Part shown: piece by piece, positions 1-13,600 of the stretch
How positions within the stretch are numbered: position 1 is the first letter of the stretch
Layout of the letters: every line of letters starts with the position of its first letter
NCBI GenBank assembly: GCA_050012135.1
Contig: JBEKHT010000002.1
Coordinates: 71,268 to 135,267 of the forward strand
Direction of reading: 5' to 3'
Origin: Anaerolineales bacterium
GTDB taxonomy: Bacteria; Chloroflexota; Anaerolineae; Anaerolineales; RBG-16-64-43
Length of the DNA: 64,000 bases
Notes under the pieces: generated by a model
What the model saw: only the letters and a program-made list of their open reading frames with translations
What the model was told of the DNA's origin: nothing
Database searches by the model: none
Program-made: the position numbers and the translations under genes

Positions 1-588
1 GAACAGCCTTGCGAGCAGCCGCCGGAGAATGCCGTGGGGGGCCAGTCGAGCGAGGGGGATAATCACCCACCGCCCGCCAGCCCTCATCACCCGCTGTGCT
101 TCGCGGATGGCCTTCTCTTGAAAGACGTACTCCGTGGGAAAGGTGGAAACGAGATTGTCAAAGACGCCTCCTGCAAAGGGAAGCCCGGTGGCGCTGGCTC
201 TCAGCAGGAGGACCTTCGAGGCGCGATGGTCAGGGCGCCGATCCTGACCTAGCCTGCGGCGGGCGATGCGACTCATGCTGGGCGAGGGGTCGAGGGCAAT
301 CAGATGCCAGCCTTGCTCCGCGAGGTCGTGGGCGAGGGCCCCCGTGCCGTGACCAATCTCCAAGACGGTCCCCGGGCGGAGAAAACGGACGGCGCACCGT
401 CTCCAGCTGGACCATTGCCCGAGCGAAACGGCCCAGGCCACGGCTTCATAGGTCCAGGCCATCTGGTTGTAGAGCAAGCTGAAGGCCAAGCGAAGCGCGG
501 AAGCAAGCAGCCGAGCTGGGCCGGAAGGAAGGCGAGAGCTGGCAGAGGCCTGGAGATTGGGCCCCTCGCTAGGCCGAGAGCCCTGCAT
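1..588 (-). CDS. class I SAM-dependent methyltransferase (3' end runs off the window)
   Basis: Own translation of the minus strand; absent from the ORF track because no stop lies in the window. MQGSRPSEG..LLYNQMAWTYEAVAWAVSLGQW..GTVLEIGHGTGALAHDLAEQGWHLIALDPSPSM..LPFAGGVFDNLVSTFP carries SAM motif I (GxGxG) and the acidic motif II. ATG at 588 overlaps the upstream gene stop by 20 nt. Confidence 0.65.
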   Translation of the reverse strand, partial: MQGSRPSEGPNLQASASSRLPSGPARLLASALRLAFSLLYNQMAWTYEAVAWAVSLGQWSSWRRCAVRFLRPGTVLEIGHGTGALAHDLAEQGWHLIALDPSPSMSRIARRRLGQDRRPDHRASKVLLLRASATGLPFAGGVFDNLVSTFPTEYVFQEKAIREAQRVMRAGGRWVIIPLARLAPHGILRRLLARLF

Positions 589-1401
589 AGCGCACCAGGT
601 CGATTCCGCCCCGCTTCATGGCTTCCCGGAGCTGTGGAGAGGTGGGTATGGCAAGCTCCGACTCGCGCTGGACAATGTGGCCGCTTCGTCGCCGCAGAAG
701 GTCATGGACCCGACCGGGATGGCATATGATCTCACTGCTGCCTGGTGGCAGGGCCTCCAGGATGGCGAGGAGGGTTGGCAGCGTCGCACGTTCCCCGTGG
801 AAAGAGGCATACAGTCGATCGGGGTGCCAAGCATTCGATTCGCCAAGCATCCGGGGCGCGTTCTCCCCGAACCAGTCCGCACGGTCCTTGGATGTTCCGC
901 GCAGGATGTCGGTAGGGTCGAGGTTCGCCACCAAGGGAGGGCGGGCCGGGCCGCTGTGCTGTCGTGCCAACCCCAGGAAGAGCCGGAGCAGGGTAGGGTG
1001 CCGGTAGGCCACGTGATGATGGTTGTCGAAATGGTCGGGTCGGACCCCGGAGGAGAAAAAGGTTTCCACCTGGGCCCGCCATTCCTTCTCACTTCCTCGG
1101 GGAGAACTTGATCGACTCGGCGCATGATGGATTCCGGGCGAAGGAACCGCCCATCCGCTCCCAAGAGGGAGGCTACCTGGCGCCGAGGAAACAGGCGGCT
1201 CTCTGCGGTGGTTTTCAAGTACACTCCGATTCCGAGACCCGGCGTTTCCGACCGAAGGCGGTCGATCTCACGCTTAACATCCGGCATATTCATCCTGACG
1301 GTGGTCGTGGTGACGATGCCCTCGCGGTGCGCCCTGCGTATTCCGGAACAGACCCCAGGTGAGACACCGTAGTCATCCGCATTGACGATCAGGTGCCGCA
1401 T
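569..1401 (-). pseudogene. ChbG/YdjC-family carbohydrate deacetylase, frame broken by an apparent 1-nt deletion near 1083-1090
   Basis: The N-terminal half, in ORF 616..1401(-) (MRHLIVNADDYGVSPGVCSGIRRAHREGIVTTTTVRMNMP..), is YdjC-like only up to ..LPEEVR. The C-terminal half continues in ORF 569..1069(-) (KEWRAQVETFFSSGVRPDHFDNHHHVAYRHP..EIICHPG). The frames join if one A is added in gaagtgagaagg. Confidence 0.75.
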
Positions 1402-2324
1402 GTCTGGGTGGCCGGGCAGAGAAGGCGCAACCGGTGGGGATGCACACGGTAGATCACCTCTTGTAGCCCTCGCGAGCTGAGCTCGCCATCCGTTTGAAGG
1501 GGAGTTGGAGTCTTGGTGCGTATGGTCCGCATTCTTGTGCGGAGCTCGTGCACCCGCGGGTCGCGCACGTGACTGCCATTGAAGGTCATGGGGAGCAAAC
1601 GCAGAAGTGCGATCCGTGAAAGCGCAGGGGCGAAAACAAAATCGAGGAGGCCGTCATCGGCCTTTGCCTTCGGGGTCATGAAGAAGAGACCCCCGGTTCG
1701 CTGGCAATTGCCCACGGAGACCAAGGTGACGGGGCCTGAATAGCTTCCATCGTCCCAGCCCAGGTCCATTTCCCAGGATGGTTTCTGGGAGATGGCCCAC
1801 AGGGCTGCCACAAGATAGCGGATCACACCCCGAAGCCATACCAGCTCGATGTTATGGATGGAGACGACCGGCTCCAGGCCGACCGCGGAATTGTTTGCGA
1901 ACAACTGTCCGTTGGCGGAACCGAGATCGATCTCGCGAAGGTGTCCAGCGGCAATGACCTGCGCCGCCTGGCGAAGATCGCGCGGTATCCCCAAGTTGTC
2001 GCATAGATCGTTGGCCGTTCCCAAAGGCAGCACTCCCAGCGGTCCCAGCCGCTCGGGCTCGTCCCGCTTTCGGCTCGTCGCCGCCTTCCCTCGCGCAAGG
2101 CCATTCACCACCTCGCCAATCGTCCCATCTCCTCCGGCGACGATTATGGGGCTATCTCCCCGCTTGACCGCCTCCTCGGCCAGGCGTGTGCAATCGCCTG
2201 GTCCGTGGCTCTCCGACAGAGTGAATTCGACGCCGGCCTCGTGCAGCGCTGCCTCAGCCTGCGGTTGCCTCGCCTTTGCCTTCCAGCGTGCAGAGTATGG
2301 GTTGAGAATGACATGAGCGGACAT
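1389..2324 (-). CDS. diacylglycerol/lipid kinase family protein (YegS/BmrU-like)
   Basis: ORF 1389..2378(-). MSAHVILNPYSARWKA..IIVAGGDGTIGEVVNGL..LGVLPLGTANDL match DAGK catalytic-domain motifs. ATG at 2324 is preferred over the TTG at 2378. Confidence 0.8.
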   Translation of the reverse strand: MSAHVILNPYSARWKAKARQPQAEAALHEAGVEFTLSESHGPGDCTRLAEEAVKRGDSPIIVAGGDGTIGEVVNGLARGKAATSRKRDEPERLGPLGVLPLGTANDLCDNLGIPRDLRQAAQVIAAGHLREIDLGSANGQLFANNSAVGLEPVVSIHNIELVWLRGVIRYLVAALWAISQKPSWEMDLGWDDGSYSGPVTLVSVGNCQRTGGLFFMTPKAKADDGLLDFVFAPALSRIALLRLLPMTFNGSHVRDPRVHELRTRMRTIRTKTPTPLQTDGELSSRGLQEVIYRVHPHRLRLLCPATQTCGT

Positions 2325-2374
2325 TGGGTCTTTCTCGGGTCGCACGCTTCGGCGGGTGCGGCTCACGGCGGATC

Positions 2375-2614
2375 TCAAGGCTGTCCGGGGGGGTACTCGG
2401 TGACCTTCAGTCCTTCCTGGCGGATGTAATCCAACGCGCGAGCGTAGTCTTCCTCCAGGCCACGCACCTCCACCAGGAGCCAGCCCACCTCGGGGGACAC
2501 CTCTGCGCGGAGTATGTTCACGTCCAGACCGAAATGGCGAATGAGCTGGTTCACAATCGGGCGATTCACGACTGTGGCAGGATAGTCGAGGCGCACCACT
2601 CGCGTGATTTCCAA
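2375..2614 (-). CDS. stand-alone NIL domain protein (copy 2)
   Basis: 79 aa. VVRLDYPATVVNRPIVNQLIRHFGLDVNILRAEVSPEVGWLLVEVRGLEEDYARALDYIRQEGLKV matches the NIL pattern known from the MetN C-terminus (FGVxVNIL..G.L.VEL.G....A..YL...G). Confidence 0.8.
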   Translation of the reverse strand: MEITRVVRLDYPATVVNRPIVNQLIRHFGLDVNILRAEVSPEVGWLLVEVRGLEEDYARALDYIRQEGLKVTEYPPGQP

Positions 2615-2621
2615 GGCGGCT

Positions 2622-3281
2622 TCATCCGCACAAGATGCGCATGAGAGTCTGTTGGCTGGCCTCTGAGGTCACGGCGATGATTTGGTCTCCAGCCTCCAGC
2701 ACGGTGTCGCCGAAGGGGATGATCGCCTTTTTCCCTTGCCGTATGACCAGCGGCAGGACGCTGTCATCGGGGATTCCCAGGGCGCGCAGTGGGCGTCCGA
2801 GCGCGGGGGAATCGTCCGGCAGCTCCATTTCGACGAAGCTGACCCCTACGCCCTTAAGGCTGAGCAAGTGAACGAGGGAATGAGATGGGATCACCTGTTC
2901 GATCTGCGACAGGATCAGTTCGGTGCTGGATACGGTCACATCAATGCCGAGTTCCCGGAAGATCTTCTCGTTCTTGGGGTTATTGATGCGGGCAATGGTG
3001 CGAGGGACGTGGAACTTATGGCGGGCAATCTGACAGACCACGAGGTTGTCCTCGTCGTCGCCCGTGACCGCAATCACGACGCCGGCTCGCTCCATGCCGG
3101 CTTCGATCATCTTCGTCACCTCGCAGCCATCGCCGTGCAGGACGCCGGTTTCCAGCTCGTCGCTGAGAGCGGAGGCGCGGGTGGCCTCCTTTTCGATGAT
3201 CAGGACCTCATGTCCATCCTCTGACAGGGACTTGGCCAGGTAGTATCCGACTTTCCCGCCGCCGACAATGATGATGTACAT
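2622..3281 (-). CDS. TrkA/KtrA-type RCK protein (TrkA_N + TrkA_C)
   Basis: 219 aa. MYIIIVGGGKVGYYLAKSLSEDGHEVLIIEKE is a Rossmann GxGxxG, and the C-terminal TrkA_C-like part reads ..ELPDDSPALGRPLRALGIP. Confidence 0.85.
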   Translation of the reverse strand: MYIIIVGGGKVGYYLAKSLSEDGHEVLIIEKEATRASALSDELETGVLHGDGCEVTKMIEAGMERAGVVIAVTGDDEDNLVVCQIARHKFHVPRTIARINNPKNEKIFRELGIDVTVSSTELILSQIEQVIPSHSLVHLLSLKGVGVSFVEMELPDDSPALGRPLRALGIPDDSVLPLVIRQGKKAIIPFGDTVLEAGDQIIAVTSEASQQTLMRILCG

Positions 3282-3296
3282 GCGCTTCCTCCACGG

Positions 3297-3695
3297 CTAC
3301 TTCGAAAGGAGCTCTTTGATGCGCATCGCCCCCCCGACAGTGGGGCAAAACGTCTCCAAGCCAAGGCCTTGATAGATCTCCTCGCGAAGCGGATCGTAGA
3401 TGCGGCACATCACCCGCGGCACTTTGAACAACCGCTTGACCAACTGGGCGGCCATGACGTTGGTGTTGTCCCCATTCGTCACGGAAACGAAGGCCTCGGC
3501 GTCCTCGATTCCCGCCCGGCGAAGAACGTCTTCATCAATGCCGGTTCCTACCACCAGCTCTCCAGGGAAATCCTCCCCCAGGCGAGCGAAGGCCGCGCGG
3601 TTGCGATCAATGACCGTCACCTGGTTCCCCTCTTTGACCAGCATCAGTGCCAGGTAAGCTCCAACTCGGCCGCAGCCCAGGATCACAACTTTCAT
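3297..3695 (-). CDS. TrkA_N-only RCK protein
   Basis: ORF 3297..3752(-) trimmed to MKVVILGCGRVGAYLALMLVKEGNQVTVIDRN. The ATG at 3695 overlaps the upstream NIL gene stop by 4 nt. Confidence 0.8.
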   Translation of the reverse strand: MKVVILGCGRVGAYLALMLVKEGNQVTVIDRNRAAFARLGEDFPGELVVGTGIDEDVLRRAGIEDAEAFVSVTNGDNTNVMAAQLVKRLFKVPRVMCRIYDPLREEIYQGLGLETFCPTVGGAMRIKELLSK

Positions 3696-3937
3696 GTCTC
3701 CTCCGTAGTCCGTGAAAGGGTATCGACTTTGACGCCCTGGGAGGCCAGCCACTCCAATCCCTGCGCAATCGCCCCGCTTTCTCCCCGGATCGCAACGATC
3801 AGCCAGCCGCTCTCCGGCCCGACATTCGCCTGCAGAATGTTTGTAATCAGGTTGAAGTCATGGATGAGCCGATAGAGTAGAGGCTCGTGCAGGAGTTGTT
3901 TCGGATAATTCAGGCGGACCCGGCTCTCTGCAATCAT
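3692..3937 (-). CDS. stand-alone NIL domain protein (copy 1)
   Basis: 81 aa. VRLNYPKQLLHEPLLYRLIHDFNLITNILQANVGPESGWLIVAIRGESGAIAQGLEWLASQGVKV matches the NIL pattern. 4-nt overlaps with both neighbours. Confidence 0.8.
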   Translation of the reverse strand: MIAESRVRLNYPKQLLHEPLLYRLIHDFNLITNILQANVGPESGWLIVAIRGESGAIAQGLEWLASQGVKVDTLSRTTEET

Positions 3938-4716
3938 GCCCTCTCCTGGGTTGCCGTCGGCTCAGAGATGGCTTCGCTGTTCTGATGGCCGGAGCGTACA
4001 GGCATCTTGGCTAGAATGACTTCACATTGGGCTCGCTTGAGCAACTCGCGGGCAGTTCTGCCCAGGCCATCCGGGTTCCTGGGGTCTCCATGCCCGGCGC
4101 TCATCACGATCGCATCCACTCCCTCCTGTCGGGCGAGGTTGAGAATACCGCCCCACGCATATCGCGCCGGAACGCTCCTCAAGTGGACGGGGAGGCCATG
4201 CTGCTTGATGATGAACTCGGCGGTGCGCAAAGCCTCCTCGCCCTTGGCGTATTCCTCTCGCAGCGGGGTGTTGAGAGACAGGGTGAAGGGGACCTCGACC
4301 ACGAAAACGAGCATGATCTCCGCTTTTTGGGAAGCTCCCAGCCGGCACGCGAGTTCCGCCGCTCCCTCGGAAGAGAGGTCGGCAGACACCGGGACGAGAA
4401 TGCGGTGCAAGGCAGAGACCGAGTGGCGCGCCTTGATCACGGGAAGAGGCGACGCCGGAGGGACAGAAAACATCCAGGAAAAGAGCGTGATCATAAGGAC
4501 GGCGAAAAGAATCGCAATCCCGATTCCAAGCGGACTGAAAACGGCCCCTCCGCCTCCCGCCCCGGCTGCTGAGAAGTGATTGGGCAGGACCGGAAACATC
4601 CGCCGACTCGAAGGGAGCGTCTTCACGAATTTCGAGGCGGACGAAAGGACCGCTGGAGCCCGAGAGTGGCCTCCAAGCCAGGGAGCGCCCGCCGTCCACA
4701 GGAAGGCCGAATTCAT
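3934..4716 (-). CDS. membrane-anchored universal stress protein (UspA-domain) family protein
   Basis: ORF 3934..4983(-). It has a TM segment (GIGIAILFAVLMITLFSWMF), then a USP fold (RILVPVSADLSSEGAAELACRL..IMLVFVVEVP..VDAIVMSAGHG..LGRTARELLKRAQCEVIL). Start is uncertain: ATG 4716 or 4599. The upstream part of the ORF overlaps a better small gene. Confidence 0.65.
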   Translation of the reverse strand: MNSAFLWTAGAPWLGGHSRAPAVLSSASKFVKTLPSSRRMFPVLPNHFSAAGAGGGGAVFSPLGIGIAILFAVLMITLFSWMFSVPPASPLPVIKARHSVSALHRILVPVSADLSSEGAAELACRLGASQKAEIMLVFVVEVPFTLSLNTPLREEYAKGEEALRTAEFIIKQHGLPVHLRSVPARYAWGGILNLARQEGVDAIVMSAGHGDPRNPDGLGRTARELLKRAQCEVILAKMPVRSGHQNSEAISEPTATQERA

Positions 4717-4769
4717 GGCGAGCGATATCCTCTTCCGAGGCAAGGAATTCGAAGGCATGTGCCCTGAGA

Positions 4770-5024
4770 TTATCTTGTCTTGGTGTCTTTCGCAGACTGA
4801 GAGCGCAACAATCGGTAGCGCACGATCCCAACATACACCCGGTAGGTTCCAAATGCAACGAGGAGCAAGGACAAAAGGAACGCGGCAGGTGTGTAGATTC
4901 CAGCGGAAACGCAGCGAACCAGGATGGCGATCCCCAATGGAATCATGAGCGCGCCAAGCAGAAACCGATAGCCGTCCGACCAAGTGGCGCGTTCGGGCGG
5001 TGGAACGAGGCGCCTCGGCCGCAT
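4770..5024 (-). CDS. small 2-TM membrane protein
   Basis: 84 aa with two hydrophobic helices (FLLGALMIPLGIAILV, AAFLLSLLLVAFGTY). The ATG directly abuts the permease stop. Confidence 0.5.
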   Translation of the reverse strand: MRPRRLVPPPERATWSDGYRFLLGALMIPLGIAILVRCVSAGIYTPAAFLLSLLLVAFGTYRVYVGIVRYRLLRSQSAKDTKTR

Positions 5025-6608
5025 CTACGATTCCTCCTCCCAGCGCGAGCGAATACCCTGCTTGTGATCGCGCTGAATCAAGGCCTCCTTGTACTGCTCC
5101 ACCATTTCAAATTCCTCCGCGCTCGTCAAGACCTCGATTTGTTCCTTTTCCCAATCGTGCTTTACGCTGCCGAAGACGGGCAGTCCACTTCGCCGGCGGT
5201 AAAAAATGTAGTACGTCACGCAGACGATGACCCACAGAGGCCCTAGAATGCGGCCGATGGTGTGGGTGATCATAACGGTCACCCAGATGGAGAAGACTCC
5301 CAGCAGGCCGAGGAACCCCAGCAGGGGCACTTCCACAACCGTACCGTCCTTGCGTTTCCAGTGGACATTGCCCGGCACCTTGTAGGGGCGAGGGCTATAC
5401 GGATCGAGAAAGCGCAGGCGGATGAGAGAAGCGAACACCAGCGTGTAACCCATCGTTGCGCCGAAGGCATAAAGGTTGCCCAGCGTGTCCAGGGCTCGCG
5501 GCGTGAGAAAGGACAAGATGGTCAATACTATGCCTACCCATCCAAAGCCCACAATGGCATTGACCGGAGTCCGGTACTTGGGATGCACTTTGTTAAACCA
5601 CTTGCTGACCAGCCGAAAATGGCTCATCGAGAAAATGAGCCGAGAATCTCCCATGACGCCGGAATTCGAAGAGGTGAGAAGGATGGTAGCACCCAGGATG
5701 GCCGTCAGGGGACCCGCGATCATGCCAATGTAGGGGATGCTGCTTGCCAGGGTGGCGATGGGGTCGCCTTCTCGTTGGGCGATCGTCTGCCATGGGAGCA
5801 CGCCCAGGCTGAGAGTGGAGAAGCACATGGCATAGATCAAAACCGTGAGAATCAAGGTCAAGGAGGTGCGTGGGATGATGGTGGCCGGGCGGCGCGTCTC
5901 CTGAGCGGCTTGGCTGATCGATTCCAACCCAACGAACGAGATGATAGCGAGCGAGGCGCCATACAGGAATTGCTCGAGGGAAGGGGCCTGGAATCTCCAT
6001 TGGTAGGCGAGAAACTCTGGCTTCCATGCGAAGAGGAACCCTGTCATGACGATTGTGGATTCCGTGATCAGGTCAAAGGCGCCCAAGACCTCATTAAAGC
6101 GAGACGACTCCCGAATCCCGCGGACATTGAGCAGGCGTAGGGCGGTGATCACGATCACGGCCTCAAGGGCCCACAGCGGATTGATGTTGACAAAGGGGCC
6201 CCAGCTCACGGTGAAGTTACGGATGAAGGGCAGGAAGAAATTGATGTAGCCTGTGGAGGCAACCGCAAACAGGGCGATGTCAATTGTGTAGTCCAGCAGC
6301 AATCCGACTCCCGCCAGGAATCCCCAGAAGTCGCCCAGCCCCCGCAGGGAGTAGTAGTGACCCCCACCCGCGACCGGATAAGAGGAGGCGAGTTCGGTGA
6401 AGGCCAAGCCAATCATTACGTAGATCACGCCGGAAACCGCAAAGGCCAGCGGGGCCATCCCCTGGGCCGCCGCAATGACAATGCCGAGCGCGGCATAAAT
6501 GTCCGCGCCGACATCGGCGTAGCCCCACATGTACGACCCCCATACGGTCACCTCCCGGCGGAGTTCGAGGCGGGGGGCCTCGGGGGCCCCTGTAGCATTC
6601 GTTTCCAT
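5025..6608 (-). CDS. APC-superfamily amino acid/polyamine permease with a cytoplasmic C-terminal tail
   Basis: 527 aa, multi-TM. GSYMWGYADVGADIYAALGIV..ELASSYPVAGGGHYY is typical of the APC family. The roughly 50-aa acidic tail is ..LTSAEEFEMVEQYKEALIQRDHKQ. Confidence 0.9.
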   Translation of the reverse strand: METNATGAPEAPRLELRREVTVWGSYMWGYADVGADIYAALGIVIAAAQGMAPLAFAVSGVIYVMIGLAFTELASSYPVAGGGHYYSLRGLGDFWGFLAGVGLLLDYTIDIALFAVASTGYINFFLPFIRNFTVSWGPFVNINPLWALEAVIVITALRLLNVRGIRESSRFNEVLGAFDLITESTIVMTGFLFAWKPEFLAYQWRFQAPSLEQFLYGASLAIISFVGLESISQAAQETRRPATIIPRTSLTLILTVLIYAMCFSTLSLGVLPWQTIAQREGDPIATLASSIPYIGMIAGPLTAILGATILLTSSNSGVMGDSRLIFSMSHFRLVSKWFNKVHPKYRTPVNAIVGFGWVGIVLTILSFLTPRALDTLGNLYAFGATMGYTLVFASLIRLRFLDPYSPRPYKVPGNVHWKRKDGTVVEVPLLGFLGLLGVFSIWVTVMITHTIGRILGPLWVIVCVTYYIFYRRRSGLPVFGSVKHDWEKEQIEVLTSAEEFEMVEQYKEALIQRDHKQGIRSRWEEES

Positions 6609-6826
6609 CGATTCCCCAATTCGAAAAGGATCAGGCTCGGGTTGCCACGATCAGGGTTCCGTCGCGGCGATGGAGGCCCTCGGCCGTCTCCCCGAGACAG
6701 CCGTCGTTCACTTCCCTACCGCGCTGCATCCTTCTGATCAGGTGCATCCTCCTCCCGGCAAATTCCTTGCTCGGGTCCCCCTGGTACCAGTACCCAATTC
6801 TACGCCAGACGCGACGAGACCGGAAG

Positions 6827-7825
6827 TTAACTCGAGCCCGCGTTCAATGCCCTCAGAGAAATCCCTCCGACCCCGAGGGGGACCCAGAAAGTAATCGCCC
6901 GATAGGCGAGAACCATGATGGCCGCGCTCTCGAGAGAGAATCCGAAGGACTTGAGAAGAAGTGTCGCAATGCCCTCCACGAAGCCGAGTCCCGCCGGGGT
7001 GGGCGCAACAATAAGGAACAGGTAAGCAATGCTGAATACGGCAATCAGGGTTCCAAATGACACGGCTTGGCCGAACGCGAGAAATACGAACAGGAAGACT
7101 CCCACCAAGAACGTCATCGCCAGAAACGAGAAGAACGCGGGCACAGCAAGCTTGCGCGGAGATTCCCGAATGGCCCGGCCTCCTTCCTCGATTTCCGCGG
7201 CAAACCTGTGAGCCCTTTCTTCTAACAGGACAGGCCGGTGCAGGAGTGGAAACAGCAGGCGATTCAGCCGTTGCGTCATCCACACGAGGAATCTCTCGAG
7301 CCTTCTGGTCGCGTTCAATCCGAGCCAGACCAGTGTTCCGAGAACGATCGCCATGGCCAGGAGGAGAAACCCGGCCGAGATGTCCGCGCCGTTCAGCCGT
7401 GAGCGCCGCAGGAGAACCACGACACCCGCTAGCACGTAGGTCAGAATCGCGAGATAGTCGAAGAGCAGGAACAACATGCCGGCCACGATGACCTTGGCCC
7501 CAGAGTGACCACGCCGTTTGGCATCCGCGAGGAACACGGCCATGCCCCCGACGCCTGCGGATGGGGCGACCACATTGACAAAAACAGAGGCGGTGGCCAA
7601 GAGCCAGAGCCTGCCCACATTCTCTTCCAGCCCGAGCGCTTGATAGATCGAACGAAAGTTGAGGGCGATGGCCACAAAATTGCAGAACTCCAGGCAGAGG
7701 GCAACCAGGAGCAACCTTAAATCGGCGCGCTGGAAGACCTGTTGGATTGCAGCTAGTTGAGAGAAGTGGGAGATAACAAAGTAGACGCCGAGGAAGAGGA
7801 CCAGGGCGAGCACCAATCTGCGCAT
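6827..7825 (-). CDS. UPF0104 / lysylphosphatidylglycerol-synthase-TM-region-like (flippase-like) membrane protein
   Basis: 332 aa, polytopic. ..NFRSIYQALG..ATASVFVNVVAPSAGVGGMAVF..APTPAGLGFVEG resembles the LPG_synthase_TM family. Confidence 0.7.
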   Translation of the reverse strand: MRRLVLALVLFLGVYFVISHFSQLAAIQQVFQRADLRLLLVALCLEFCNFVAIALNFRSIYQALGLEENVGRLWLLATASVFVNVVAPSAGVGGMAVFLADAKRRGHSGAKVIVAGMLFLLFDYLAILTYVLAGVVVLLRRSRLNGADISAGFLLLAMAIVLGTLVWLGLNATRRLERFLVWMTQRLNRLLFPLLHRPVLLEERAHRFAAEIEEGGRAIRESPRKLAVPAFFSFLAMTFLVGVFLFVFLAFGQAVSFGTLIAVFSIAYLFLIVAPTPAGLGFVEGIATLLLKSFGFSLESAAIMVLAYRAITFWVPLGVGGISLRALNAGSS

Positions 7826-8792
7826 AGGTCGAGATTATACCCGGGGATCCTGGCAACGCCGTTTCACCGTCATGCATACATCGGTTTGACCAAATAGAGC
7901 TTCGCTAGGTGTGCGATACAAGACGAGGGCGGGAGGATCATTCATCCGCCCTCGCGCATTCGTTCTTGAGCGCCTGCAGTGCCTCAGGGTCCGACGCTTT
8001 GGTCCTGTCGAATCCGGCTCCACCTCGCCCAGGCTGCTGCTGCGTTTCGCAACCACTGCCTCTCATACTCTGCCACCCGCCGGTGGTCCATAAGCGTCAT
8101 GAGCTCATCCACCAGGAAGGGTTCCGGGACTGCGCATTCAATAATAGGCGACCTCATTGCTCACGGTGCCCGGAACCCCATACCCGTCGTGCTTCTTGCC
8201 CAGATGTGGAAGGTTCGTGACCTCAAACAGGTCCGTGCGAATATTCCTGTTGGCTATCGCGAGCTTGCGGGCGAGCATAACGACTCGCGGGCCGTGAGAT
8301 CAGGTGGGAGCGGCGAATGCATGGTTGGAACAGCCCTGACCAGCTTCCCAATGTGCTCGCGGACTTGCGGAACCGGCCCATGCACTCTGCGGCTCACCAG
8401 GAGGATGCCTCAGATGAGGAAACCCAAGTCGCACCCGTCGGCGACGCCGAAGGAAGAATCCCGTGGTCCAGAGAGGGATCTCCATCGGCTAGGTGAGCCA
8501 TCACCGGCGTTTTCTCGATCTGGCACCGCTCGGCCCTCCCGCGAGCGAGAACGAGATCAAGGATCTCGGGGCGAATCTCGCCACAGGCCTCAGCCGGCCT
8601 TTCTCCAATCCGCGCGTTTTTGCGAACATGTCGCATGCAAGGACTTGATTGTTCCCTTGAGTGAATAGCATCAGCCGTACCGCTTCTTGGATCTAGGCGA
8701 AGGGCCGTCCAAATTGCTTGCAAACGTTCTCGGTCAGTAGGGAAATCTCCAAGGCTTTGTCCATGTTAATGGCCGCTGAGGAAATGATGTTG

Positions 8793-9875
8793 CTAAAGAG
8801 GAGGCGAGGGCGGACCCTTCATGGGCCCAACAGGGACAACCCGGTCCGCCGCACGACTCAGGCGGTCGTTGATCGCAAGCCCGAGCCCTTCAGGAGGAAG
8901 GGTATGGGCCAGGATAAGATCGACATGCGCGCTTTCCAGGGTTCGAAGTCCAGCAAAAAGACGCCGCGCGACCTGGGGCAGGTCGGAAATTGGCCCAAGG
9001 TCACACGTTTCTGCGGTGGTCGGCCTCATCAGCCTCAAACCTTCAGAAACGGCGATGACACCCACCCTGCGTCCCGCGCGCATCGCCTCATCCGCGATTT
9101 CCGCGAGTTCCTGCATTTGTTCTTGCAGCTCGAACCCTGAGCAGAGAACAGTTTGTGCTCTTGGGGCATAATGCCGCGCTTGTCTCCCGGGAGAAGAGCT
9201 GAGGCGCTCGTCTGGTTGCGCAATACGCACCGGCCCGATGACGGCCTCGATCTCTTCACGGGGAAGCCCGCCAGGGCGGAGGATCACCGGCGGCTGAGAG
9301 AGCAGGTCCAGCACGGTGGACTCAATCCCAAGAGGTGTTGGACCTCCATCAAGAATTAGTTCGATGCGACCTGATAGGTCGTCAAGCACATGCTGAGCAT
9401 TGGTGGGGCTGGCGTGGGCGAACCGATTGGCGGAGGGAGCGGCGATCGGCACGCCGCATGCCCGCAGAAGTCCGAGGGCCACAGGGTGTGCTGGCACACG
9501 CACCGCGACCGTCTGGAGTCTGGCGGTTACCTCGGGAGGAATCTTGTCGCTCTTGGGTAGGAGAAGGGTGAGGGGGCCTGGCCAGAACCTCTCGGCGAGC
9601 TTGAGTGCGGTCCTCGGCTGCGCAGAACTTACAAGCCAAAGGTCGTCACGGTTTGCCAAATGGACGATCAAGGGGTCGCTGGACGGCCTCCCCTTGGCCT
9701 CGAAGATCCTGAGCACCGCCTCGGGATCCAGCGCGTTGGCCCCCAGGCCATAGACAGTCTCGGTCGGGAACGCGACCAGATCCCCGCGAACAATGCTCTC
9801 CGCCGCCCGGGCGAGGATTAGCTCCTCCGGGTGCATTGGATCAACCTTGCAGACGATCGTCGAGTGATTTGACAT
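8793..9875 (-). CDS. tsaC: L-threonylcarbamoyladenylate synthase, Sua5 type (YrdC + Sua5 domains)
   Basis: ORF 8793..10058(-) trimmed to the ATG at 9875. Motifs: GDLVAFPTETVYGLGANA..KGRPSSDPLIVH..PSANRFAHASPT. Confidence 0.85.
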   Translation of the reverse strand: MSNHSTIVCKVDPMHPEELILARAAESIVRGDLVAFPTETVYGLGANALDPEAVLRIFEAKGRPSSDPLIVHLANRDDLWLVSSAQPRTALKLAERFWPGPLTLLLPKSDKIPPEVTARLQTVAVRVPAHPVALGLLRACGVPIAAPSANRFAHASPTNAQHVLDDLSGRIELILDGGPTPLGIESTVLDLLSQPPVILRPGGLPREEIEAVIGPVRIAQPDERLSSSPGRQARHYAPRAQTVLCSGFELQEQMQELAEIADEAMRAGRRVGVIAVSEGLRLMRPTTAETCDLGPISDLPQVARRLFAGLRTLESAHVDLILAHTLPPEGLGLAINDRLSRAADRVVPVGPMKGPPSPPL

Positions 9876-10658
9876 GATCCCTGACCGCACGATTATATTC
9901 TCCGACGGAGTGGGCAGGCGCCGGATAGTGAGGCTTTGGCGACCCTCTCGAAAAGAGAGTTGCTTCGGCTCGGGAACCGAAGGTCCCTGGAGGTTACCTC
10001 GGATCAGATAGGCCCACTTGACGAATGGGATCGCACGACCTGCTGGAGAACAACGCATTCAGAGCAGGGATTCGAGGGCCAGGATCTTAGCCAGTCCCGC
10101 GTCTGGGTCAGATTCCCCAGAGAGAAGGATGACCGGGCAGGGGGAAGACGGGTCCCCGGTTTTTGGAGAAAAGAAGACCGAACGAGGACGCCAAGCGTAG
10201 GAATCCCACCCTGGTCAGGGTCTCACGCAGGGCAATGGACAGGATGAGGAGAACGATCGCGAGGGGAGTGAACCGAGCGTGGAACGCAGCTGGAAGGGGC
10301 TCGGGGCACGCCACAGGTCGACTCCGCAACGTGCTCGATTAGATCGGTTGCGGGACCCGTGCGAGCAGGAATGGCGTCGAGGCAACAGCCTGTGACCTGA
10401 GCGGCGGAGAACTGGTTGCCGGTGTCGCGTACCCTTTGTGCGATGAAGGCGAAGAGGGAAAGGGGGGCCGCGGTTCCCCTCCGCCAGGATGATTCTGATT
10501 GTCGACTTCCGTTGCAACATCATGCCACGCCACAACCCCATTTGGGGGGTATATCCATATGTGGATGCGAATTGTCAAGTACCGAATATGGTGTGGCCTG
10601 CGCGCCTCGCCCTAGATACGCCGGTTGCGGAAAGCGACAAGATGGGTAGAATCATTTT

Positions 10659-13600
10659 GTGGCCATTTTCCCGCTTCCTGTAGGACCGGGGTACCGCGCC
10701 GCACGTCCTGCCAGGTTCACCGTCCCGCGCACACCGTCGGACCTTCTTGAGCGTCCGCGCCTTACCGAATTCATCCAAAGACACCTCAATCGAAAACTGA
10801 TCCTGATCTCGGCTGCGCCTGGGTACGGCAAGACCTCCTTGGCTGTAACCTTTGCCCATCAAGCCGATTTCCCTTTGGCCTGGCTGTCCCTCGACGAAAC
10901 TGACCGAGACATCGTCACCATGGTGAACGACCTCTTCCAGTCGCTCCACCGAGCATTGCTTGACTGGTTGCCGCCGCCTCCTGAGTCGCTGGGGCTTCCT
11001 TCGGCGGCGAGTCAGCCGGTAAGCCTTGGGCTTGCGCTCACACAGGCTCTGGACCAAGCCGCGACGGATTTCACCGCACTGGTCATCGACGATTTCCACT
11101 TGGTCGATGATTCGCCTGCGATCATCGAGTTCTTCGATTCCTTCTTTGAGACGCTTCCCCCGCAACTGCACGTGATCCTGCTCAGCCGGCAAATCCCTCC
11201 CCTTCGCATTGCGTCGCTCGCCGCAAGACAGGAGATAGCCGGCCTGAGTGAAGAGCACCTGCGATTCACCCCCTCTGAAGTTCAAGCGCTGCTGGAGAAG
11301 CGCAACAACCTTACCTTGCCGACCTCAGACGCAGAAGCGCTGGTCTCGCACACCGAGGGTTGGATCACCGGGATTCTGCTCAGCAGCCAGCTAATCTGGC
11401 GAGGCTTGCTCAGCAACGTCGGCCTGCGGCGTGAGCAGGAGAGCATGCTCTACGATTACCTGGCCGAGGAGGTCTTAGAGCAGCAGCCTCAAGACCTTCG
11501 CACGTTCCTGTTGGAAGCATCCGTTCTTCCCGAGATGGATGGGGCGGCCTGCGACGTGGTCCTTGGCCGTCCCGGAGACAGCGCTCGGATGCTTGAGCAG
11601 CTTGAAGCAAAGCGGCTCTTCATCAGCGCCGTGGGGGATCCGCAGCCCACATACCGCTTCCACCATCTTTTCCGCGAGTTCCTGCTGGCCAGGCTTAGGC
11701 AGAAGAATCCCCTGCGCCTTCAGCAACTCCAGCGCCGGGCTGCCGAACAATACGAACTAAGTGGGATGCCGGAGGCTGCTTTCAACCTGTATGTCGCCTG
11801 CGGAGATCTTGCTCGCGCGGGGTCTATGGCTGAGGCCAACGCACAGAGCCTGTTCGAATCCGGAAGGCGAGAAATCCTGCTTCAGTGGGGGAAGCAACTC
11901 GAACAGATTTCACTGGAGGTCCCAAGATTGCAGTTCTGGGTGAGCAGAACGCTGTGCGATCGCGGGGAGATCGAGGTTGCTCAGGAGGCTGCTGATCTTG
12001 CCCAATCGGGATTCGAGAGGCGTTCCGACAAGAATGGTCTGACGAACGTTGAACTGATAAACGCCTGGTTGAACTTCCTGAAAAGTGACTACCGTTCGGG
12101 GCTCGCTCGAGCGCTTGCAGTACTAAGTCGTGCGGAAGGGGAGGAGTTGCCTCTGGAGACGAGGGCAATTGCTGAGCGGTATGCAGGCAGGTGCGAGCTT
12201 GAGCTTGGAAGAGCTCAATCGGCGCTTGACCACCTCAAGAGGGCTGCCACCTGGTTCGCGCAAGTCGGAAACGAGTATAGCCACGCGGTGACATTGACGG
12301 ACTTAGCTCTGGTGCTAAGGGTCTTGGGCAAGACTGCAGAGGTTTCGCAAACCCAGCAGCAGGTTCTCGCCGTCTGGAGGAAACTTGGCGTCCCGGGACA
12401 TCTGGCCATTGTGCTGAACAACGTCGGTTATGACATGCATATGCTCGGGCAGTACCAATCGGCGCGAGCCGTATATGAAGAGGCTTTGGAGTGGGCCAGG
12501 AAGTCAGGCGAAAGGCATGCGCAGGCTGTCGTGCTGATCAGCCAGGCTGACCTGCTCCGAGATCTGGGTGACAGCCAGCTTGCAGCCGATCTCTATAGCG
12601 TGGCAAACAAGCTGGCGCAGGAGGCGAGTGATAATGTGTTGCTTTCTTACATCTTCTGGGGTATGGCATTCATCAATCGCTCCGCCGGCAATTTCCCGGC
12701 CTCCCTCGAATGGCTGCGCCGAGCTGACTTAGCCGTAAGTGCTTCTGAAGAAAACTCAGCGCCAACGAACGGGGCGCTTCGCGGGGCTGTGCTTACAGAA
12801 ATGGGAGACCGCGAGCAGGGCTTGAAGTGCCTTCGAAAGGCAGCAGAAGACTTGGAGGCGCGCGGAGGAGATTTTGCCAATCTTTCCTGGGTCTCTCTCC
12901 TCCTCGCCCGTTCGCTCTGGATGAATGGATCTGCGGAGGAAGCGACAAGGCGACTCAAGCGCTCATTGGATCTGGCCAGAATGCTTGGGTACGACCAGAT
13001 GCTGGTCAGAGAGGCACTTGCGAGCAGGGAATTCCTAAGCACGGTCGCAAACTCTGAGGATCTTGGGGCACAGGTCAGGTCACTGCTGTTGCGTGCAGAG
13101 AATCTGCCGCCACCCGAGCAGGGCGCACGAGAGTTGCACGAGGGAGTCAGTTCGTCTGTCGTTGAGGTCAACGCATTGGGGCCCGCAAGAGTCGTTGTTG
13201 ATGGGCGGGAGATACCACGCACAGAGTGGGTGAGCCAGCGCGCCAGGGAAATGTTCTTCTTCTTGGTTGACAAGACATCAGTTCCCCGAGACGAGCTGCT
13301 TGCATTGTTCTGGCCCGAGACTCCTCAAGGAAGGGCGCTGACGAACCTTTATCAGACCTTGTATCGGATGCGCCGAGCGCTGGGGGGAGAGGCTGTTATC
13401 TTGAGGGATCAGGTTTGTCAGCTGGCTGAGAATCTTGATGTTCGATATGACGTGGCGGCGTTTGAGGAGGGCGCATCCCGGGCGCTCGCTTTGCCGCATC
13501 AGGACCTGCGCCGAATAGGCGCCCTGGAGCACGCAGTGGATCTGTATCTTGGGGATTACCTGGCCTACCTTCCCGTCGAATGGGCTAGGCAGCGCAGGGA

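Follow-up and report, generated by a model that had tools for sequence, protein, structure and literature searches.

In the textbook view, rings of TrkA-type RCK proteins regulate TrkH/KtrB pores, K+ channels, and CPA2 antiporters. In one described case, TM1088A and TM1088B of Thermotoga maritima crystallize together as a 4+4 octameric ring (PMC4380455). Several transporters of the APC fold are also well described. KUP proteins share a conserved VFGD/IYGD motif in transmembrane (TM) helix 1 and depend on essential acidic residues in TM1, TM3, and TM6, which are D23, E116, and E229 in Kup and D36, D117, and E233 in KimA; the TM1 aspartate (Kup D23, equivalent to KimA D36) binds K+ (PMC6994465). 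In GkApcT, Thr43 and Gly44 belong to the TM1 loop whose backbone forms the site for the alpha-carboxylate of the substrate (PMC5803215). In Mycobacterium tuberculosis, one report gives the 'Trk' system as CeoB plus CeoC (PMC8358298). Transposon mutants in Rv2690c, the APC-type gene next to them, have the phenotype of ceoB mutants, and Rv2690c and ceoB have been grouped as parts of the Trk system (PMC12216072, PMC8358298). Here, we describe an operon in which two TrkA-type genes are packed together with an APC permease gene. It lies in a 64,000-nucleotide stretch of an Anaerolineales bacterium (assembly GCA_050012135.1, contig JBEKHT010000002.1, positions 71,268 to 135,267), hereafter the window.

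The operon is encoded on the minus strand (2375-6608) within a 3.1-Mb assembly that is 97% complete, and the genome-wide negative results given below cover that assembly. It comprises genes for an APC permease of 527 amino acids (5025-6608), an 84-amino-acid peptide with two TM helices (4770-5024), a TM-anchored USP of 260 amino acids (3934-4716), an 81-amino-acid NIL protein (NIL1, 3692-3937), an RCK_N-only subunit of 132 amino acids (3297-3695), an RCK_N+C subunit of 219 amino acids (2622-3281), and a second NIL protein of 79 amino acids (NIL2, 2375-2614). In the list of open reading frames (ORFs), the spacings from the permease gene to NIL2 are 0, 53, -4, -4, 15, and 7 nt. The start codon of the peptide gene thus abuts the permease stop codon, NIL1 overlaps each neighboring gene by 4 nt, and NIL2 starts 7 nt downstream of the RCK_N+C gene. 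The seven genes, their positions, and their spacings had been described in an initial annotation of this DNA, and the ORF list confirms all of them. Pfam likewise agrees with every domain call: AA_permease_2 in the permease (2.5e-35), a Usp domain (6.4e-11) behind the one N-terminal TM helix of the USP, NIL in NIL1 (2.3e-16) and NIL2 (2.9e-18), TrkA_N and no other domain in the RCK_N-only subunit (2.3e-26), and TrkA_N (4.9e-31) plus TrkA_C (9.2e-14) in the RCK_N+C subunit. NCBIfam gave sub-threshold matches only for the operon proteins, to amino-acid, ethanolamine, and polyamine permeases and to TrkA.

We consider it very likely that the module constitutes a single RCK/USP-regulated APC transporter. 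The best explanation overall, which we favor without being certain of it, is an RCK/USP-regulated APC-fold cation importer, probably for K+. Taken by itself, the proposition that the transporter carries K+ is evenly balanced.

A Conserved Gene Core around an APC Permease

The conserved core of the operon consists of five genes, namely those for the APC permease, the 2-TM peptide of about 80 amino acids, the TM-anchored USP, the RCK_N-only subunit, and the RCK_N+C subunit, in that order. In a pattern scan that took one genome for each GTDB species, a permease relative bearing WGS[YF][MT]WGY / ADVGADIY turned up in 422 species. Synteny was analyzed by tblastn with the window proteins in the best 80 loci, 62 of which had enough flanking DNA to be informative. 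Beside the permease, the USP was found in 61, the RCK_N-only subunit in 58, and the RCK_N+C subunit in 57 of these 62 loci, and all three were present in 57 (92%). The order permease, peptide, USP, (NIL), RCK_N, RCK_N+C was seen nearly everywhere in the best 80 loci, and the same order was obtained from independent gene calls with precomputed Pfam annotation. At least 12 phyla are represented among the loci, including Chloroflexota, Acidobacteriota, Zixibacteria, WOR-3, Thermodesulfobacteriota, Ignavibacteria, Nitrospirae, Elusimicrobiota, Bacillota, Armatimonadota, Myxococcota, and Methylomirabilota. Since the gene order recurs in so many phyla and in 57 of 62 loci, the arrangement is not due to chance. 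The association of the RCK and USP proteins with an APC permease instead of a TrkH/KtrB pore, which the initial annotation had read from this one operon, holds to the same extent.

The permease itself is unusually conserved, with 60-92% identity between orthologues of different phyla. The USP-RCK genes of some Aminicenantes and Terriglobales run divergently from the permease gene, yet they remain its neighbors. The gene that follows RCK_N+C varies: it encodes a sigma-54 response regulator in five loci, an H+-pyrophosphatase in four, and hydrolases elsewhere. Because this next gene is variable, the module is taken to end at RCK_N+C. The larger gaps between the USP and RCK_N genes of orthologous loci contain no recurrent ORF.

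The two small membrane components differ in how far they can be followed. The 2-TM peptide is detectable by tblastn in Chloroflexota and Aminicenantes loci and is too diverged in sequence elsewhere; in distant phyla, a 2-TM ORF of 64-113 amino acids with a G-x-YR motif fills the same slot. The TM anchor of the USP carries the conserved motif LG..A..FA..MG.LLWWMLH.P. Residues 1-58 of the USP ORF are not conserved among 72 orthologues compared. The true start may therefore be Met40 at 4599, which would widen the gap to the peptide gene from 53 to about 170 nt. Assignment of the USP to the ATP-binding UspFG type was considered and rejected, as the G-x2-G-x9-G-S/T motif is not conserved.

A physical link between permease and USP is supported by fusion proteins. 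An exhaustive HMMER search of 1.84 billion representatives returned 135 proteins at E<1e-30, and many permease relatives at 30-40% identity are 610-820 amino acids long. Pfam detected a C-terminal Usp domain in four of ten relatives that were scanned, which makes these four proteins APC::USP fusions.

The RCK Pair and Its Missing Partners

Both RCK proteins retain the GxGxxG...D/E Rossmann motif, which ends in D in the RCK_N-only subunit. Each matches one half of the Thermotoga ring in PDB 3L4B: RCK_N matches TM1088A (2.4e-25), and RCK_N+C matches TM1088B (3.9e-34). The PDB TrkA scores for the RCK proteins are 5.8e-42 and 8e-30. These two proteins are the sole genuine TrkA_N matches in the genome.

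The initial annotation had pointed out that the window holds no TrkH/KtrB/Kef-like gene, and it had named an unlinked but co-regulated canonical trkH/ktrB partner as a finding that would speak against its reading. The absence extends to the whole genome. Searches for TrkH/KtrB (PF02386), which matches 11 of 14 control genomes, and for CPA/Kef (PF00999) were empty, and no Kup and no K+ channel of the Ion_trans_2 type were found in the genome either. KdpA is present, and Kdp is the sole K+ system found in the genome.

The absence of TrkH has limited meaning. TrkH occurs in 6 of 50 cassette-bearing genomes and in 1 of 41 genomes of the order to which the window belongs, whether or not they carry the cassette. 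An anti-correlation between TrkH and the cassette was considered as evidence and rejected, since TrkH is missing from 40 of the 41 genomes of the order, among which the genome of the window alone has a match to the permease. The absence is therefore a lineage background, and it shows only that the RCK pair cannot work with TrkH.

NIL Proteins and Mobility of the Cassette

NIL is best known as the C-terminal ligand-binding domain of the MetN ABC ATPase, where it mediates trans-inhibition. In the operon, NIL1 is placed between the USP and RCK_N genes and NIL2 follows RCK_N+C, and the genome encodes no other NIL protein. Among the 80 loci, a NIL protein is present in only about 9-11, all of them from Chloroflexota, and always between USP and RCK_N. 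About 11 Chloroflexota cassettes, representing at least two classes, have a NIL1-type protein in this position.

A maximum-likelihood tree splits the NIL proteins into two clades, each with 99/97 support. The cassette clade contains NIL1 and 12 NIL proteins of Chloroflexota cassettes. The resident clade contains NIL2 and the stand-alone NIL proteins of the window's order, which adjoin DAGK, LPG_synthase_TM, Sua5, or YdjC genes and have no RCK/APC gene nearby. The backbone of the window has the same makeup: Sua5 (8793-10058), LPG_synthase_TM (6827-7825), the cassette, NIL2, the YegS/DAGK lipid kinase (1389-2324), and YdjC (616-1401). LPG_synthase_TM flanks the operon upstream and the lipid kinase flanks it downstream, both as assigned by Pfam.

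Comparison within the genus shows loss of the cassette. By blastn, collinearity between the window and the same-genus genome G001 is limited to window positions 17-2846 and 6858-7843, and the segment 2847-6857 is absent from G001. This corresponds to a clean deletion of about 4.0 kb, from the APC promoter region through about codon 144 of RCK_N+C. A 76-codon RCK_C stub is left directly upstream of NIL2, which is kept (L034 7781-8310). In another genome of the genus, G002, the rest of the operon is kept and the contig ends inside the USP gene.

The distribution of NIL proteins, their tree and neighborhoods, and the loss in G001 indicate that the cassette is a mobile unit and that NIL1 travels with it in Chloroflexota. 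NIL1 is thus a Chloroflexota-specific accessory. NIL2 is a bystander and not part of the mobile cassette; it adjoins RCK_N+C because the cassette was inserted there, and it is now probably co-transcribed with the cassette.

Within this order, the resident NIL proteins are a clade with vertical inheritance, and their genes lie in a housekeeping block. Its arrangement is Sua5 - NIL - YdjC in genus g2, NIL - DAGK (a lipid kinase of the YegS type) in at least four further families, and LPG_synthase_TM - NIL in genus g3. The recurrent lipid-kinase and flippase neighbors of the resident NIL may be meaningful. Genus g3, which belongs to the same family as the window, also encodes a NIL protein of the NIL1 clade beside LPG_synthase_TM, with no permease, USP, or RCK gene nearby (L050 5613-5846, L052 7983-8216, L028 41-274). 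This NIL may be the remnant of a cassette that once occupied the same insertion site and was lost.

These results bear on a reading in which NIL is integral: both NIL proteins would form one ligand-sensing assembly with the RCK and USP proteins and trans-inhibit the APC transporter as in MetN. The translational coupling of NIL1 through its 4-nt overlaps with the USP and RCK_N genes, the retention of its slot in Chloroflexota, and the position of NIL2 only 7 nt after RCK_N+C all fit such an assembly. However, more than 80% of the cassettes, and all phyla except Chloroflexota, do without NIL. In addition, NIL2 belongs to the resident clade, has orthologues without RCK/APC neighbors, and was retained in G001 despite the loss of the cassette. 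We therefore regard an assembly centered on NIL as improbable. The initial annotation had proposed a NIL+RCK(+USP) assembly acting on an APC transporter and had looked to NIL-RCK adjacency in relatives as its check. The association of RCK and USP with the permease is upheld across at least 12 phyla, whereas a core role for NIL is not, and the adjacency is kept for NIL1 within Chloroflexota cassettes but neither for NIL2 nor in relatives from the order.

Links to c-di-AMP and Kdp

The cyclic di-AMP (c-di-AMP) riboswitch is an OFF switch found before K+ importers (kimA, ktrAB, and kdp) and osmolyte importers. Of 36 orthologous loci scanned with Rfam, 12 have this riboswitch (RF00379, 71-102 bits) immediately 5' of the permease gene, where it lies on the coding strand at a distance of no more than about 330 nt. 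The loci that bear it come from Thermodesulfobacteriota, Zixibacteria, Nitrospirae, Ignavibacteria, Moorellaceae, Clostridia, and Bacillota. Since an OFF switch of this kind precedes importers, uptake is favored over export as the direction of transport. A c-di-AMP cyclase with a DAC domain is encoded in the genome of the window.

In one Thermodesulfobacteriota metagenome-assembled genome (MAG), the locus (L114) holds two c-di-AMP riboswitches, at 6786-6913 and 10628-10754, in tandem operons. One precedes the cassette. The other follows the cassette and precedes two small proteins and then kdpA/kdpB.

This locus raises another reading, in which the RCK pair acts on an unlinked target such as KdpFABC or an unrecognized channel and the permease is merely a neighbor. 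RCK and USP domains do participate in Kdp regulation elsewhere among bacteria, and the kdp genes behind the cassette of L114 would be in keeping with such a role. This kdp adjacency, however, is found in one locus only. The 92% synteny with the permease in at least 12 phyla, including loci with divergent USP-RCK genes, and the movement of the cassette as a unit also speak against an unlinked target, which we consider highly improbable. A regulated APC transporter remains the reading that we adopt in the following sections.

Permease Family and Substrate-Binding Site

Pfam places the permease in PF13520 (2.5e-35) and PF00324 (5.4e-26), and K_trans (PF02705) gives no match at E<=0.01. The closest solved relatives are CAT4 and GkApcT (about 1e-20), and KimA follows at 1.7e-6. 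Against the NCBIfam equivalogs, all permease scores are far below the cut-offs, and the closest curated families are CAT, BcaP, and ethanolamine permeases. Orthologues are annotated by JGI as 'basic amino acid/polyamine antiporter'.

The binding site departs from that of the amino-acid transporters. TM1 carries the invariant motif W-G-Y-A-D32-V-G-A-D36-I-Y, and further acidic residues are D106 and D110 in TM3 and E229 in TM6. Of these acids, D32, D36, D110, and E229 are invariant in 24 orthologues. A HMMER alignment sets Y30-A-D32-V-G34-A35-D36-I-Y38 over I-G-A-I40-I-G42-T43-G44-I-F of GkApcT. D32 thereby takes the place of Ile40, the carbonyl of which binds the substrate amino group, and D36 takes that of Gly44, the backbone NH of which binds the substrate carboxylate (PMC5803215). 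D106 corresponds to the proton-coupling residue Glu115, E229 to Asp237, a conserved acidic residue of TM6, and S314 to Met321, a thin-gate and selectivity residue (PMC5803215). D110 aligns with Ala119, for which no role is described in GkApcT, and is an extra acid.

The carboxylate-binding G-[SAT]-G of SLC7/CAT-type TM1 is therefore missing from the permease, which reads G34-A35-D36 at this position, and this reading is invariant in orthologues. An aspartate at the expected site of the substrate carboxylate points away from an alpha-amino acid and toward a cation. A comparable substitution is known from the NSS family, in which an Asp in place of Gly24 of LeuT separates monoamine from amino-acid transporters. 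By motif comparison, with positions taken from the GkApcT alignment, Y-A-D32-V-G, D106-Y107, and E229 appear analogous to the TM1 motif and the TM3 and TM6 acids of KUP proteins. The related APC::USP fusion subfamily reads G-Y-G-D-V-G-S-S in TM1. With no K_trans match in Pfam and a fold search that does not discriminate, the KUP likeness is a resemblance and not family membership.

A cation other than K+ would satisfy part of this evidence. The same assembly could transport an organic cation or osmolyte, such as a polyamine, agmatine, ethanolamine, or a choline-type amine, or else a cationic amino acid, with RCK and USP tying uptake to the energy or osmotic state. The CAT, BcaP, and ethanolamine permeases among the closest solved and curated relatives and the JGI label of the orthologues point in this direction, and an acidic pocket with Asp for the carboxylate-binding Gly suits amines equally well. 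Moreover, osmolyte uptake is also controlled by c-di-AMP riboswitches and RCK_C proteins. On the other hand, the rings of this type that we know of all regulate inorganic-cation transporters, namely Trk, Ktr, Kef/Kht, and K+ channels. The KUP-like Y-[GA]-D-V-G in TM1, a kdp operon that has a c-di-AMP riboswitch to itself and adjoins the cassette in L114, and a genome that, besides Kdp, has no Trk/Ktr, Kup, or K+-channel-type importer argue for K+ as well. We regard an organic substrate as unlikely, and as the main alternative to K+.

Several points weigh against a regulated K+ importer, and most of them concern the permease. Its sequence is nearer to the CAT/BcaP amino-acid transporters than to KimA and lacks a K_trans match. 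The TM3 and TM6 acids are also present in the amino-acid transporter GkApcT, so that only the TM1 aspartates are diagnostic. AF2 yields only a weak permease model (pLDDT 65), in which the breaks of TM1 and TM6 are not resolved, and Foldseek does not discriminate, as it returns LATs, AdiC, KimA, and CATs alike. The riboswitch link has its own limits. No riboswitch was found in the window, either by an Rfam E-value scan of 1-12000 or by a gathering scan of the whole window, and RF00379 is absent from all Chloroflexota, Aminicenantes, and WOR-3 copies that were scanned. Furthermore, c-di-AMP riboswitches control amino-acid transporters in addition to those for osmolytes. Lastly, the lineage-wide lack of TrkH adds no weight of its own, and the relatives, most of which have neither TrkH nor the cassette, evidently manage without either system.

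Proposed Mechanism and Significance

In the reading preferred here, that of a regulated importer, the horizontally mobile five-gene module, with NIL1 as a sixth gene in Chloroflexota, would act as one regulated transporter. The APC-fold permease would be the translocating subunit, and the 2-TM peptide and the single TM helix of the USP would be its partners in the membrane. The RCK_N-only and RCK_N+C subunits are predicted to form a 4+4 gating ring like that of TM1088A/B. The permease has a conserved, charged C-terminal tail of about 50 residues (475-527), for which AF2 predicts two helices, and the ring would probably dock on the permease through this tail. It would open or close transport in response to nucleotides (ATP, ADP, or NAD(H)) and possibly to c-di-AMP at RCK_C. 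The substrate would be a cation without an alpha-carboxylate, with K+ as the preferred candidate and proton symport, known from KimA and Kup, as the mode of uptake. The module could thus serve as a constitutive K+ importer in cells whose only other K+ system is Kdp. NIL1, translationally coupled between the USP and RCK_N genes, would be an extra ligand-sensing subunit.

No characterization of an APC family together with a TrkA/RCK system was found in the literature, in agreement with the initial annotation, which knew of no characterization of the pairing. Nothing was found that links 'NIL domain' with TrkA, or that treats CeoB, CeoC, and TrkH together. We tentatively propose, with slightly less than even confidence, that the module represents a widespread and undescribed class of K+ uptake systems in at least 422 species and at least 12 phyla. 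In this class, an APC permease and a peptide would be gated by a two-subunit TrkA ring plus USP under c-di-AMP control, and Chloroflexota would have recruited a NIL sensor. The permease would then be the missing membrane partner of genomes with 'TrkA without TrkH', including the mycobacterial CeoBC.

If this proposal is true, an APC-fold carrier would be a new membrane partner of RCK rings, and the pairing would be a novel gating mode for secondary transport. A function would be assigned to the many orphan TrkA genes of TrkH-less genomes, and hundreds of 'basic amino acid/polyamine antiporter' annotations would be reassigned. The proposal also suggests a K+ source for uncultured lineages such as Aminicenantes, Zixibacteria, and Anaerolineae, among others, and it leads to a specific hypothesis as to what the membrane component of CeoBC is. 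The context of NIL1 would be the first for stand-alone NIL proteins as accessory sensors.

Variants and Neighboring Genes

The operon leader in the window is the intergenic region 6609-6826 (minus strand), in which Rfam detects no c-di-AMP riboswitch. A promoter and terminator scan gave nothing that exceeded shuffled expectation.

Cassettes of other genomes vary in composition. Three loci (L072, L080, and L081) encode the permease and USP without RCK genes within 7 kb and are natural 'RCK-less' variants. Two permease copies, in tandem or a few kb apart, occur in L104 (7001-10507) and L126 (880-8473), with the USP/RCK set beside one copy only. A second RCK_N/RCK_N+C pair lies upstream of the cassette in L116 (4355-5710).

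The genes behind the cassette also recur in certain lineages. In Aminicenantales (L053-L056, 11513-11971), a PTS_EIIA_2 gene of the EIIA-Ntr-like type immediately follows the RCK pair, and a 152-amino-acid ORF of L079 (10477-10935) occupies the same slot, matched by size only. EIIA-Ntr binds TrkA in E. coli, and the PTS_EIIA_2 protein behind the RCK pair may be another regulatory input. In Chloroflexia, a gene for a membrane H+-pyrophosphatase lies directly 3' of the cassette in the four tallied loci and in L057 (5307-7346). The tallied loci are taken to be L084, L085, and L088 plus L077, L086, or L090, on the basis of ORF size and not of per-locus Pfam matches. The sigma-54-dependent response regulator found directly 3' of the cassette in five loci is of the NtrC type. 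Four of these loci, assigned by ORF size (about 450 amino acids, at about 10420-11800), are L096, L097, L098, and L101, which come from Thermodesulfobacteriota and 'delta proteobacterium' MAGs.

Comparison with Known Systems

The RCK pair finds its closest counterpart in Thermotoga maritima, where TM1088A and TM1088B are likewise encoded by adjacent genes for an RCK_N-only protein (about 140 amino acids) and an RCK_N+C protein (about 218 amino acids). In Thermotoga, the ring serves the TrkH homologue TM1089, whose gene is its neighbor (PMC4380455), whereas the window has the APC permease, peptide, and USP instead.

NIL1 and NIL2 resemble the C-terminal NIL (C2) domain of MetN of the methionine ABC importer, and match PF09383 over its full length and the MetN C-terminus in TIGR02314. 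Unlike in MetN, they are stand-alone ORFs of 79-81 amino acids with no fusion to an ABC ATPase. NIL1 is tied to the RCK/APC cassette, and NIL2 to a lipid-kinase neighborhood.

The K+/H+ symporters KimA (YdaO) and Kup (PDB 6S3K and 8B70) share with the permease the APC/LeuT fold and a TM1 motif of the Y-[GA]-D-V-G type. The permease acids, as placed by the GkApcT alignment and motif comparison, may also correspond to those that serve the K+ site (TM1) and H+ coupling (TM3 and TM6) of these symporters. The kimA/ydaO gene is preceded by a c-di-AMP riboswitch, as are 12 of the 36 orthologous cassettes scanned, but not that of the window. In KimA, c-di-AMP is sensed by a cytoplasmic domain fused to the transporter, whereas the permease has a short tail, and sensing is presumably left to separate RCK and USP proteins.

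GkApcT-MgtS and the CAT and LAT transporters of SLC7 (PDB 5OQT and 6F34) share the 12-TM APC architecture and the pair of Glu/Asp in TM3 and Asp/Glu in TM6. In the permease, however, the TM1 G-[ST]-G is replaced by G-A-D and Ile40 by Asp, and we know of no SLC7 protein with an RCK ring. Small TM partners are a common theme: TM5 of GkApcT is the packing site of MgtS, the LATs have 4F2hc as their partner (PMC5803215), and the permease has the 2-TM peptide. More distant relatives of the permease are the APC::USP fusions, in which TM1 reads GYG[DN]VGSSIYY compared with YADVGADIY in the family of the window.

By analogy of gene content, the nearest analogue of the module is mycobacterial CeoBC (Rv2691/Rv2692) with Rv2690c. 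We take the M. tuberculosis genome to contain Kdp and no TrkH, and CeoB and CeoC are presumably both N+C proteins, unlike the N-only and N+C pair of the window. The likeness lies in the gene arrangement: in both cases, two TrkA-type genes stand beside a gene for an APC-type membrane protein (PMC12216072).

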